The notes beneath the pieces are model-generated. The model was not told where the DNA came from and made no database searches. It saw only the letters and a program-made list of their open reading frames with translations. A stretch of 64,000 nt of DNA from Escherichia coli (lineage in GTDB: Bacteria; Pseudomonadota; Gammaproteobacteria; Enterobacterales; Enterobacteriaceae): the NCBI RefSeq assembly GCF_024700885.2, contig NZ_CP117016.1. The stretch is one strand, 5' to 3'. Positions 21,337-29,654 of this stretch are shown here, in pieces. Positions within the stretch are counted from its first letter, which is position 1; each line of letters starts with the position of its first letter. A program made the translations under genes and the position numbers.

Positions 21337-22001
21337 AACAGTTTAGCTATTGCCCGACACACTCAACGCATCCTCCGTTCTGTTATGACTTTCACTATGT
21401 CAAATCGGGGATGGTCGCCATCTTTGGTGACAACGGCAGTGGCAAAAGTACGCTGGCACAGCTGATGGCGGGCTGGTATCCGGACTTTCTGCCAGGAGAG
21501 ATAACCGGCACGGGGACGCTTCTCGGTACGCCCATTGGGCATCTCCCGCTTAATGAACAATCCGCCACCATCCAGCTCGTTCAGCAATCGCCCTATTTGC
21601 AGCTCTCCGGCTGTACCTTTAGCGTGGAAGAAGAAGTTGCCTTTGGGCCAGAAAATCTGTGTCTTGCTGAAGAAGAGATTATGGCGCGGATTGATGCCGC
21701 CCTGACTCTGACCGAGTGCCAGCCGTTGCGGCATCGTCACCCGGCAACACTCTCCGGTGGAGAGACACAGCGCGTGGTCATCGCCTGCGCCATCGCGATG
21801 CAGCCAAAACTATTAATTCTTGATGAAGCCTTTAGTCGCCTGACGCCGCAGGCCAGCGAAATGCTGTTGCAGCGCTTACAACACTGGGCGTTTGAACGTG
21901 GTTCGCTGATTATTCTTTTTGAACGTCATCGCACACCTTTCCTGAACTACTGCCAGCAAGCGTGGCAACTGCAAAACGGAGCGCTCCAGCCACTATGCTA
22001 A
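21318..22001 (+). CDS. ABC/ECF ATPase component A
   Basis: 227 aa; Walker A GDNGSGKST, signature LSGGETQR, Walker B LLILDEA. Confidence 0.8.
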   Translation: MDMVTLEQFSYCPTHSTHPPFCYDFHYVKSGMVAIFGDNGSGKSTLAQLMAGWYPDFLPGEITGTGTLLGTPIGHLPLNEQSATIQLVQQSPYLQLSGCTFSVEEEVAFGPENLCLAEEEIMARIDAALTLTECQPLRHRHPATLSGGETQRVVIACAIAMQPKLLILDEAFSRLTPQASEMLLQRLQHWAFERGSLIILFERHRTPFLNYCQQAWQLQNGALQPLC

Positions 22002-22672
22002 CGTTAAATCAGATATCTTATCGCTGGCCTGGCGCGGCAACGGATTGTCTTTGCGACATTTCTCTGCAACTCAAACAAGGCGAATGGCTGGCGCTGACCG
22101 GCGACAATGGCGCGGGAAAATCGACGCTGTTACGAGTAATGGCAGGTCTTCTTCCGCCCACAGCCGGTACGGTTATGCTGCAACAACAGGCGATGAAAAA
22201 CCTGAAAAACCGCCAACGTGCAGCAAAGATTGGCGTACTGTTTCAGGAAGCGGAAAACCAGCTTTTTCACAGCACCGTCGCCGACGAGATCGCATTTGGT
22301 TTGAAACTGCAAAAATGCCCGGCGGATGAAATCACTCAACGTACCCATGCTGCCCTGCAATGCTGTCAGTTAGCAGACACTGCCAGCGCGCATCCGTTAG
22401 ATCTGCATAGTGCGCAGCGACGGATGGTCGCCGTCGCCTGCCTGGAAGCACTCTCTCCGCCGCTATTGCTGCTGGACGAGCCGAGTCGGGATTTTGACGA
22501 AAATTGGATGAGCGTGTTTGAAAGCTGGCTGGAAAAGTGCCGTCAGCGAGGCACGAGCGTCATAGCAATCAGTCATGACGCCGCATTTACCCGGCGTCAT
22601 TTCTCTCGGGTGGTGCGACTGGAAGATGGTGTAATCAGGAACGTTAATCCACCAGATGATATTCACCCGTAG
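21995..22672 (+). CDS. ABC/ECF ATPase component A' with degenerate signature motif
   Basis: ORF 21962..22672; likely start MLTLNQISYRW at 21995 (ATGCTAA overlap with upstream stop); Walker A GDNGAGKST, Walker B LLLLDEP, H-loop SHD, signature replaced by LHSAQ. Confidence 0.75.
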   Translation: MLTLNQISYRWPGAATDCLCDISLQLKQGEWLALTGDNGAGKSTLLRVMAGLLPPTAGTVMLQQQAMKNLKNRQRAAKIGVLFQEAENQLFHSTVADEIAFGLKLQKCPADEITQRTHAALQCCQLADTASAHPLDLHSAQRRMVAVACLEALSPPLLLLDEPSRDFDENWMSVFESWLEKCRQRGTSVIAISHDAAFTRRHFSRVVRLEDGVIRNVNPPDDIHP

Positions 22673-23357
22673 CGGTCATCATTAAGGTCAAATTTGCAGG
22701 CAGACTCTCTTCCAGCACCCGGCGAACATTCGGCCCATCGGTACGGTCATAAAAGGCATCTGCGTCTGCCAGCGATAACCCTCCCGCCAGCTTGCGCCCC
22801 ACCAGTCGTTCCCGCAACGCAGTAGCTGGCGCGTTGATAAAGATCGAGAAATCACAAAATTGCGCAAGCTGGCACCACTTCTCGTCGTCCAGCAACAACC
22901 AGTTTCCTTCGACGATGACGAGTGGTGCGGTAACGTGCAACGCATCTTCAACAGGATCATGCTTTTGTCGATCGTACTGTGGCCACGTACAATCCCCTTC
23001 CACGACCTGGCGCAGGTTTTCCGCCAGTTTCGCTACATTGAATGTCTCTGGTGCGCCTTTGAAGGGGCGCAATTGATGCGCATCCAGCCAGCTATTGTAA
23101 TGGTGAAAACCATCCATCGGCAGCGTCTGTATAGCGGGTAGTTCCGGGTCTTGTTGCGCGAGATATTCCCAGAAGGTGGTTAGGGTAGATTTACCCGTCC
23201 CCGGCGGAGCGCAAAGAAAAACCACCGTACGCCGCTGCGGATTTACCGTCTGTAAGGCCGCCAACATGCGCAGCAACGGTTTATGTACATTTTCTATCTC
23301 ATCAACATGGTACTGTGCTTGTACCTTCAGACCATTCACCGTTAATTCAATTTTCAC
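22644..23357 (-). CDS. yggC: P-loop kinase-like protein YggC
   Basis: 237 aa, P-loop APPGTGKST. Confidence 0.9.
   Translation of the reverse strand: MKIELTVNGLKVQAQYHVDEIENVHKPLLRMLAALQTVNPQRRTVVFLCAPPGTGKSTLTTFWEYLAQQDPELPAIQTLPMDGFHHYNSWLDAHQLRPFKGAPETFNVAKLAENLRQVVEGDCTWPQYDRQKHDPVEDALHVTAPLVIVEGNWLLLDDEKWCQLAQFCDFSIFINAPATALRERLVGRKLAGGLSLADADAFYDRTDGPNVRRVLEESLPANLTLMMTATGEYHLVD

Positions 23358-29288: not shown

Positions 29289-29654
<366 letters not shown>

Follow-up and report, generated by a model that had tools for sequence, protein, structure and literature searches.

Two adjacent ATPase genes in a stretch of Escherichia coli DNA of 64,000 nucleotides (here called the window) raise the question of how many of the ATP sites of the transporter that they would power are competent for hydrolysis. 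The product of the first gene (A1) contains a canonical ABC signature, and that of the second (A2) has LHSAQ where LSGGQ is expected; the first-pass annotation had proposed on these grounds a heterodimer with one canonical and one degenerate site.

An accessory ECF-type operon

The two genes are the last of five accessory genes forming an operon, which was found in 3334 of 5426 complete E. coli genomes (~61%) and is missing from K-12, a strain that has been reported to be devoid of ECF core components (PMC5372724). The genes are the following:

19596..20027, + strand: PCC/PPC-domain protein (DUF296-like), operon gene 1; Pfam PF03479, 95.6 bits
20050..20628, + strand: ECF S component (substrate capture); Pfam PF12822, 35.3 bits; PGAP "ECF transporter S component"
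20629..21336, + strand: ECF T component (scaffold/coupling); Pfam CbiQ PF02361, 22.8 bits (cutoff 25)
21324..22001, + strand: ATPase A1, 225 aa, canonical signature; PF00005 at 78 bits
21995..22672, + strand: ATPase A2, 225 aa, degenerate signature; PF00005 at 96 bits

The S and T genes lie directly upstream of A1-A2, so the gene set of an ECF-type, vitamin-style importer (S, T and two A) is present; the T gene, which PGAP names [quoted passage not shown], overlaps the start of A1 by 13 nt. The S-T-A order is repeated in three other loci (L004, L082 and L086), and in these, too, a PCC-domain gene is located upstream. The PCC-domain protein matches PDB entries 2HX0/2NMU (1.8e-70), deposited under the title "putative DNA-binding protein", while the S component has no PDB relative detectable by sequence and its top NCBIfam match is NF045596 (CD3073 family), at 136 bits and under the cutoff of 180. 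Many E. coli strains carry this ECF transporter, and queuosine precursors are among its candidate substrates, on the basis of a source label and of a gene neighbour in relatives. One source labels a Proteus homologue as the ATPase of a "queuosine-regulated ECF transporter"; in the comparison with QrtTUVW, the S component matched just the generic PF12822 and, below cutoff, the CD3073 family, and Rfam searches (gathering thresholds for the entire window, E <= 1 for 19280-20100) gave no riboswitch upstream of the operon. A scan of 19250-22800 for promoter and terminator consensus sequences returned counts that were not above those of shuffled sequence, and a literature search on YkoD, CD3073 and the Salmonella locus tags found nothing specific. 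An Arthrobacter relative adjoins a putative nucleoside hydrolase gene, as judged from reading the translation alone.

A1 and A2 overlap by seven nucleotides:

21995..22001, + strand: ATGCTAA overlap; ATG 21995-21997 (A2 start), TAA 21999-22001 (A1 stop)

This overlap had been noted already in the first-pass annotation, which started A2 at 21962; that position is only the GTG of the maximal open reading frame, the true start being the ATG at 21995, as called by PGAP and as indicated by the orthologs, all of which begin with MLTLNQ. A GGAG is located 13 nt 5′ of this ATG, and the overlap reads ATGTTAA in Citrobacter (L002) and ATGCTAA in L086, from another genus; its conservation is compatible with translational coupling of the two genes.

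In the comparison with the EcfA/EcfA' families, which had been proposed as a check, the ECF models are the best NCBIfam matches, TIGR04520 (ECF_ATPase_1) for A1 and TIGR04521 (ECF_ATPase_2) for A2, but the scores, 122.1 and 150 bits, are far below the respective equivalog cutoffs of 315 and 330. Among structures, the best ECF match of A2 is Lactobacillus brevis EcfA (4huq_B, 3e-31), residues 2-218 aligning on 6-222 of 279. In our preferred reading, A1 and A2 are the two different ATPase subunits of a dedicated, group I-like importer of the ECF type, with the organization PCC-S-T-A1-A2.

A signature that is degenerate and conserved

The catalytic motifs of the two ATPases, with their conservation among ortholog clusters (109 for A1, 113 for A2), are these:

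21426..21452, + strand: A1 Walker A, GDNGSGKST; G-x-N/S-G-S/C-G-K-S-T in 109/109 clusters
21750..21764, + strand: A1 signature LSGGE, canonical; invariant in 109/109 clusters
21810..21845, + strand: A1 Walker B LLILDE (21810-21827), then the D-loop region AFSRLT; LDEAFSRLT in 109/109 clusters
21918..21929, + strand: A1 H-loop region FERH; Arg201 at the H-loop position, His202 one residue on and not conserved
22100..22126, + strand: A2 Walker A, GDNGAGKST; intact in 110/113 clusters
22238..22255, + strand: A2 Q-loop region LFQEAE; Q84 invariant
22403..22417, + strand: A2 degenerate signature LHSAQ (Ser to His, Gly to Ser, Gly to Ala); LH[TSA]AQ in 113/113 clusters
22463..22498, + strand: A2 Walker B LLLLDE (22463-22480), then the D-loop PSRDFD; LDEPSRDFD in 111/113 clusters
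22568..22579, + strand: A2 H-loop ISHD, canonical; His kept in all aligned orthologs

As an ABC nucleotide-binding domain (NBD; PF00005), A2 has Walker A, Q-loop, Walker B and H-loop in canonical order, and only the LSGGQ feature is missing; its Walker A is identical in 108 clusters and reads GNNGAGKST or GPNGAGKST in two others, the remaining three being frameshifted or truncated entries. In HMMER alignments to ABCB4 and ABCB1, 'LDLHSAQRRMVAVA' falls on 'AQLSGGQKQRIAIA', which places LHSAQ at the signature position. The motif assignments of the first-pass annotation, namely a canonical signature in A1, LHSAQ for LSGGQ in A2 and otherwise intact A2 motifs, are thus borne out and, moreover, are conserved. 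How uncommon the A2 signature is can be judged from 100 ABC domains of unrelated loci, of which 69 have xSGG[QE] and only 4 have both glycines replaced; this background sample consists of the leftover loci of a contig profile search with the A2-family alignment, a search that keyed on generic Walker A/Q-loop patterns and returned mostly unrelated ABC ATPases along with three loci of the family (L002-L004).

A degenerate motif in an accessory operon, missing from K-12, could be thought of as a sequencing or frame error, or as a sign of an operon on its way to pseudogenes; occasional frameshifted or fused alleles (P0007, P0455) exist, and the E. coli proteins are without the C-terminal extension of their Providencia homologues. 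This reading deserves hardly any credence. Many complete E. coli genomes carry the A2 sequence with 100% identity, hence LHSAQ is not a sequencing error, and no alternative frame has LSGG near the motif, the condition that the first-pass annotation had named as fatal to its claim. The signature motif and all the catalytic motifs are kept across genera, and most members of the ortholog clusters are full length. Both genes are under purifying selection: in the comparison with Citrobacter, in which synonymous sites are saturated, pN/pS is 0.117/0.769 for A1 and 0.177/0.755 for A2 (about 0.15-0.23), and omega against L086 is 0.15 for A1 and 0.20 for A2. On the frame scan and the conservation data, the frame-error and pseudogene readings are rejected: LHSAQ is a degenerate motif that is conserved, not decaying. 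Its flanks, HPLDL and RRMVA, are invariant, and in more distant relatives the position is occupied by LHAGQ, LNAGQ or LNSAE. A departure from the consensus is in itself no proof of an inactive site. The strong conservation of HPLDLH.AQRRMVA indicates some function of this region, and the invariant His or Asn at position 2 of the signature could touch the gamma-phosphate; both points speak against a dead site.

Two deviations on one predicted composite site

A1 was also found to deviate from the consensus, a point missed in the first-pass annotation. It has Walker A, Q-loop, Walker B and LSGGE, but the H-loop His is replaced: FER is near-invariant in the 109 clusters, and the residue that follows is hypervariable (N, R, H, T, D, K, Q and others). 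The register of the H-loop was set by counting residues from the conserved RG turn in two translations, and the hmmsearch alignment of P0123, a fused relative described below, likewise puts E-R on S-H. His202 was considered as the H-loop residue and rejected, as this would need a two-residue gap; the gapless register, with Arg201 at the H-loop position, is preferred. In the A1 D-loop, Asp is replaced by Thr (SRLT vs SALD).

According to general ABC architecture, A1 and A2 would assemble on the T component as a head-to-tail heterodimer, each ATP site being composed of the P-loop of one subunit and the signature of the other. One site (site II) would then be complete, with Walker A, Q-loop, Walker B and H-loop from A2 and LSGGE from A1, and the other (site I) would be degenerate in two elements, combining Walker A and Walker B of A1, FER in the place of the H-loop His, and LHSAQ of A2. 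Both the A2 signature and the A1 H-loop deviations hence map to the site built on the A1 P-loop, while the other site is invariant, with the exception of the A1 D-loop; indeed the non-canonical SRLT is assigned to the consensus site, which is a caveat, as is the fact that E. coli A1 retains the catalytic Glu (LDEA) and a His one residue past the H-loop position.

We consider it likely, from these sequence patterns, that the A1:A2 heterodimer has one consensus hydrolytic site and one site that binds ATP and hydrolyses it poorly. The asymmetry proposed in the first-pass annotation is supported by the comparative data (113/113 and 109/109 clusters, together with the fusions described below), and its degenerate site stands, with the refinement that this site is built on the A1 P-loop and has a second defect in the lost A1 H-loop His. 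Resetting of the transporter would depend on ATP hydrolysis at site II. At site I, ATP binding is most likely retained, since the A1 P-loop and the Walker B Asp-Glu are conserved, but hydrolysis would be slow or absent; like its counterpart in heterodimeric ABC exporters, this site may act as a nucleotide latch or allosterically. The stoichiometry would then probably be one ATP hydrolysed per cycle.

Alternatively, site I could be a re-wired active site, in which A2 His138 acting in trans, A1 Arg201 or His202, or both subunits' residues, substitute for the missing H-loop His and signature Ser, so that both sites turn over. In agreement with it, the subfamily conserves both the A1 "ER" and a His or Asn in the second position of the signature, the region is under tight constraint, and A1 retains Walker A and the Walker B Glu. 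Against it, Enterobacteriaceae replace both glycines of LSGGQ, A1 position 202 is hypervariable, and the losses in the N-terminal NBD of distant fused relatives (see below) look like relaxed catalytic constraint; on balance, we regard turnover at both sites as unlikely. Equally tentative is the more specific proposal that the degenerate site is no passive relic but a re-engineered element, either a permanently ATP-loaded latch that keeps A1 and A2 together in place of the C-terminal dimerization domains lost from the Enterobacteriaceae proteins, or a catalytic site complemented in trans, the A2 His/Asn standing in for the A1 H-loop His. If it were true, the system would be a natural ECF transporter with a single turnover site, in which the ATP count per cycle and the identity of the NBD driving the expulsion of the S component would be directly testable.

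Pairing of the signatures and H-loops holds also outside E. coli: A1 FERN occurs with A2 LNAGQ in Providencia, FERA with LHAGQ in L086, and ERN or ERT with LNSAE in P0135 and P0147.

Other group I ECF systems have homodimeric ATPases, e.g., CbiO and BioM, and A1 and A2 might accordingly not be partners at all, each forming a homodimer or serving a separate transporter, with no mixed site. We hold this to be very improbable. The two genes overlap by 7 nt, and the operon to which they belong has just one S gene and one T gene. If A2 paired with itself, both ATP sites of the dimer would be degenerate. Fusions of the types A1-A2 and T-A1-A2 are found in the same genomic context. In P0123, A1 and A2 form one polypeptide in a PCC-S-T context, in P0135 and P0147 the T component is fused to A1-A2, and A1-A2 fusions are present also in some E. 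coli/Shigella genomes; these natural fusions support a 1:1 heterodimer.

Fused relatives and known two-ATPase systems

The same one-sided pattern is the rule among 141 fused ECF-type representatives, which were chosen by similarity to A2 and are not phylogenetically independent; TIGR04520/04521 are the top models for 10/10 of those sampled. Their C-terminal NBD, corresponding to A2, has the Lys, Gln, Asp-Glu and His each in 141/141, and a canonical signature in only 27, the other 114 being non-canonical. For the N-terminal NBD, the signature is canonical in 130/141, but the H-loop His is present in only 102/141; in 38 of the 39 cases of His loss, the C-terminal signature is degenerate (Fisher p = 0.0014, not corrected for phylogeny). 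In the more distant members the N-terminal NBD has also lost the Walker B Glu (14/141), the Q-loop Gln (21/141) or the Walker A Lys (5/141). Among these signatures LHSAQ is an extreme variant, as His at position 2 is found in 2/141 and Ala at position 4 in 12/141. The one-sided pattern is shared with these YkoD-like, fused two-NBD ATPases of dedicated ECF-type systems, one of which, P0123, is an orthologue in the same PCC-S-T operon; the E. coli genes differ in being split, with a 7-nt overlap, and shorter. The paper on YkoE/YkoD makes no mention of Walker or signature motifs, and the asymmetry of the sites is therefore not discussed there.

Group II EcfA/EcfA'-EcfT transporters (L. brevis 4HUQ/4HZU/4RFS; L. 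delbrueckii ECF-FolT2 5JSZ) are similar in having two different ATPase genes beside the T component, together with an S component, and A1 and A2 match the solved EcfA at E of about 1e-31 to 1e-19. However, the E. coli module is dedicated, an S component of its own and a PCC-domain gene being encoded alongside, and its ATPases, of 225 aa, are without the ~55-residue C-terminal extension of EcfA/EcfA' (about 270-290 aa); long forms are present in Morganellaceae and Budviciaceae. Moreover, a bona fide EcfA1/EcfA2 pair, L007 (380.6 and 345.9, above the cutoffs), has LSGGQ and the His in both subunits. Functional asymmetry has been described for ECF-FolT2, which has two consensus sites, ATP being retained in EcfA and ADP in EcfA'; in ECF modules of this type, asymmetry has been seen only as such a difference in nucleotide occupancy, by cryo-EM (PMC10368641).

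Degenerate ABC sites are well established as a principle and are a known design in ABC exporters. In heterodimeric exporters (TM287/288, TmrAB, BmrCD, TAP1/2, CFTR/ABCC) the NBDs are non-identical, as in the E. coli system, and the deviations in signature, H-loop and in some cases Walker B are likewise confined to one composite site, the other being strictly canonical; the degenerate site is described as binding ATP without hydrolysing it efficiently (PMC3971661; PMC7756565). The reviews consulted assign degenerate sites to exporters. These are type IV proteins with fused transmembrane domains, while the E. coli system belongs to the ECF-type (type III) importers and has S and T as separate subunits, and the substitutions also differ, being LH[STA]AQ and H-loop His to Arg in E. 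coli. Degenerate sites were not described for any ECF transporter in the literature that we searched.

ECF transporters are mechanistically unusual, in that the S component topples in the membrane, and to our knowledge work on them has so far used modules with two consensus ATP sites. A widespread, naturally one-sided family would offer tractable genetics to establish whether one hydrolysis per cycle suffices, and it could show how the two NBDs are matched to the coupling helices of the T component and what a non-hydrolytic site contributes; for specialists, the system is useful rather than startling.

LivG/LivF-type pairs in the sampled loci have an LPLGx signature in one subunit and Gln for the H-loop His (EQ) in the other. 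By ABC geometry these deviations, too, fall in one composite site; the loci score below the LivG/LivF cutoffs, and LivG/LivF is a type I importer family, whose operon and subunits are unrelated to those of the E. coli system.

The ECF operon and its distribution

Five genes on the same strand lie between epd and yggC in the window, coding for a PCC/PPC-domain (DUF296-like) protein (PCC), the substrate-capture (S) and scaffold (T) components of an ECF transporter, and two ATPases of 225 aa each, A1 and A2; the PGAP annotation gives identical coordinates for all five.

19596-20027, +, PCC/PPC-domain protein (PF03479)
20050-20628, +, ECF S component (PF12822; best NCBIfam match the CD3073 family, below cutoff)
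20629-21336, +, ECF T component, CbiQ-like
21324-22001, +, ATPase A1
21995-22672, +, ATPase A2

The PCC-S-T-A1-A2 cluster is accessory, being carried by 3334 of the 5426 complete E. coli genomes; window 19400-22750 is 100% identical in SMS-3-5, NCTC86 and other E. coli strains. K-12 MG1655 does not carry the island (its epd-yggC gap is 284 bp), in agreement with a published statement that E. coli K-12 lacks ECF core components (PMC5372724). When window 19434-22712 was compared with K-12, homology was found to end at about 19433 and to restart inside yggC at only 78% identity, and therefore the 3′ end of yggC is a divergent allele. A2 (+) and a yggC-like kinase gene (-) converge, sharing 29 nt at their 3′ ends (window 22644-22672).

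Motifs of the two ATPases and conservation of the A2 signature

The first-pass annotation described a canonical A1 and an A2 with a degenerate signature, and all the motifs that it named were located in the two translations.

21426-21452, +, A1 Walker A, GDNGSGKST
21750-21764, +, A1 signature, LSGGE
21810-21827, +, A1 Walker B, LLILDE
22100-22126, +, A2 Walker A, GDNGAGKST
22403-22417, +, A2 signature position, LHSAQ
22463-22480, +, A2 Walker B, LLLLDE-P
22568-22579, +, A2 H-loop, ISHD

LHSAQ occupies the signature position, because A2 LDLHSAQRRMVAVA aligns on AQLSGGQKQRIAIA of ABCB4 and ABCB1 in HMMER; Ser is changed to His, the first Gly to Ser and the second Gly to Ala. As a background, xSGG[QE] is canonical in 69 of 100 ABC domains of unrelated loci, and both glycines are replaced in only four of them. 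The ATGCTAA overlap of the two genes was confirmed at 21995-22001, and this 7-nt overlap is conserved (ATGTTAA in Citrobacter, ATGCTAA in L086, a locus from another genus). Position 21962, taken earlier as the A2 start, is only the GTG that opens the maximal ORF; since all orthologues begin with MLTLNQ, A2 has its conserved start at ATG 21995.

The degenerate motif is conserved, not decaying: LH[TSA]AQ is found in 113/113 A2 ortholog clusters, from Escherichia, Salmonella, Citrobacter, Klebsiella, Atlantibacter, Leclercia and others, across which Walker A, LDEPSRDFD and ISHD are also conserved. HPLDL and RRMVA, on either side of the motif, stay unchanged down to 45% identity; the motif itself reads LH[ASTV]GQ or LNAGQ in Morganellaceae and Budviciaceae, and LHAGQ, LNSAE or LDAAA in distant fused relatives. 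Both genes are under purifying selection, with low non-synonymous divergence and saturated synonymous sites (pN/pS versus Citrobacter 0.117/0.769 for A1 and 0.177/0.755 for A2; omega versus L086 0.15 and 0.20, respectively). Motif conservation and low pN/pS, together with the absence of LSGG in any other frame there, therefore rule out the frame error that the first-pass annotation had raised as an objection; a pseudogene is likewise rejected, given the cross-genus conservation of the motif and the low non-synonymous divergence.

Among the A2 homologues P0001-P0124 and P0391-P0484, long forms (265-285 aa; Morganellaceae, Budviciaceae) have Gly at signature position 4 (LH[ASTV]GQ in 61/70), whereas short forms (~225 aa; Enterobacteriaceae) have Ala (LH[STA]AQ in 138/141); thus loss of the C-terminal extension co-occurs with further signature degeneration, possibly as a clade effect only. 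One E. coli A2 allele, P0007, has a frameshifted stretch, KRQWRGKIDAVTSNGRSS..., in place of the Walker A region, and P0395, a 397-aa A2 with internal repeats, is probably an assembly artefact.

Two predicted composite sites and the proposed cycle

ABC dimers are arranged head to tail, so that each ATP is enclosed by Walker A, Walker B and the H-loop from one NBD and by the signature motif of its partner. Site I would accordingly combine the A1 P-loop with the A2 signature, and site II the A2 P-loop with the A1 signature. Across 109 A1 ortholog clusters LSGGE, Walker A and LDEAFSRLT do not vary; in the H-loop region, by contrast, LFER precedes a hypervariable position (N, R, H, T, D, K, Q and others), occupied by His in only about a fifth of the clusters. 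Arg201 falls at the H-loop position (manual count from the conserved RG turn in two translations), and hmmsearch places E-R on S-H in the A1-A2 fusion P0123; in E. coli, Arg201 is followed by a non-conserved His202. Elsewhere the region reads FERN (Providencia), FERA (L086), ERN (P0135) and ERT (P0147). A1 is thus also abnormal, a point missed by the first reading, and, because of the head-to-tail geometry, His loss would affect the same site I as the A2 signature. Site II (A2 Walker A, Walker B, Q-loop and H-loop, with A1 LSGGE) is intact and invariant; the exception to the one-site split is the A1 D-loop, SRLT and not SALD, assigned to site II.

Together with the gene overlap, fusions provide strong Rosetta-stone evidence for a predicted 1:1 A1:A2 heterodimer served by one T component: in P0123 both ATPases form one 503-aa polypeptide within a PCC-S-T context, P0135 and P0147 are T-A1-A2 triple fusions, and some E. 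coli and Shigella genomes have a 420-449 aa A1-A2 fusion (P0451, P0453-P0461). The latter originated by a frameshift near A1 codon 213, reading into the open extension upstream of the A2 ATG (window 21940-21997), the same extension that was included when GTG-21962 was used as the start. P0455 was encountered on 23 contigs, some of them from genomes of roughly 5 Mb.

Among the 50%-identity representatives, 141 of the 150 nearest to A2 carry two NBDs, and ECF ATPase models were the best match for 10/10 of those sampled.

Motif conservation in the two-NBD relatives (N-terminal NBD; C-terminal NBD)
Canonical signature: 130/141; 27/141
Walker A Lys: 136/141; 141/141
Q-loop Gln: 120/141; 141/141
Walker B Asp-Glu: 127/141; 141/141
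H-loop His: 102/141; 141/141

Loss of the N-terminal H-loop His is paired with a degenerate C-terminal signature in 38/39 (Fisher p = 0.0014, phylogeny ignored); in the control EcfA1/EcfA2 pair L007, which exceeds the NCBIfam cutoffs, each subunit has LSGGQ and His. On these counts, one-sided degeneracy appears to be the rule in a dedicated ECF ATPase branch, within which the E. coli pair is short, encoded by split genes and fairly extreme. The asymmetry of the A1:A2 sites, as first proposed, is supported by this pattern, by the second defect in site I and by the fusions.

It is quite probable that site II is hydrolytic and that site I binds ATP and hydrolyzes it poorly. Both sites would take ATP, and the closed A1:A2 dimer would act on the T coupling helices and through them on the S component; hydrolysis at site II would reset the cycle, while ATP would stay bound at site I with slow or absent turnover. 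Site I may thus be a latch or allosteric site, by analogy with TM287/288, TmrAB and related exporters, where such a role of the degenerate site is described (PMC3971661; PMC7756565). A re-wired and still active site I, using the second signature residue of A2 (His or Asn) or A1 Arg201/His202, seems unlikely: that residue of A2 is invariantly His or Asn and HPLDLH.AQRRMVA is tightly conserved, so that the region must be functional in some way, but the N-terminal NBD of fused relatives further loses the Walker B Glu, the Q-loop and the Walker A Lys, which looks like relaxed catalytic constraint.

Relation to known systems and candidate substrate

The degenerate-site principle is well known and reviews ascribe it to exporters (PMC3971661); its extension to ECF transporters seems to be new. 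A literature search for degenerate sites in ECF transporters found none, which is not proof of absence, and the YkoE/YkoD paper has nothing on them. A1/A2 would resemble the degenerate/consensus heterodimeric exporters in working, but as an ECF-type importer. The pair is related to EcfA/EcfA′ but falls under the equivalog cutoffs (122 vs 315 and 150 vs 330), is encoded with its own S component and, in Enterobacteriaceae, is without the C-terminal extension seen in EcfA proteins. Cryo-EM of ECF-FolT2 revealed functional asymmetry between two consensus sites (PMC10368641), of which the A1/A2 family would be a hard-wired version. LivG/LivF-like adjacent pairs (L060, L066, L068, L069, L071) have LPLGx and EH in one subunit, LSGGE and EQ in the other, an analogous one-site degeneracy in a type I importer family; therefore degenerate sites in importers are probably under-reported and not unique to the A1/A2 family.

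The S component matches generic or below-cutoff models only, and Rfam detected no riboswitch upstream of the operon in the window. The Proteus homologue P0397 is labelled in its source as the ATPase of a 'queuosine-regulated ECF transporter'. In Arthrobacter mangrovi (L003 1288-5621) a putative nucleoside hydrolase gene, recognized by eye from its translation, precedes S, T and a fused ECF ATPase with TQT at the N-terminal H-loop and LPASG as C-terminal signature; this neighbour and the P0397 label hint at uptake of a nucleoside or queuosine precursor. PCC is the conserved first operon gene across genera (L004, L082, L086), and structures of its Salmonella orthologue from structural genomics (2HX0, 2NMU) were deposited as 'putative DNA-binding protein'.

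Three Rfam matches to the ES036 (CssrF) sRNA, all above the gathering threshold, were found elsewhere in the window.

15571-15613, +, ES036 (CssrF) match
29354-29396, -, ES036 (CssrF) match
29528-29570, -, ES036 (CssrF) match

Since they are short and repeated, these matches suggest a repeated palindromic element rather than three sRNA genes.
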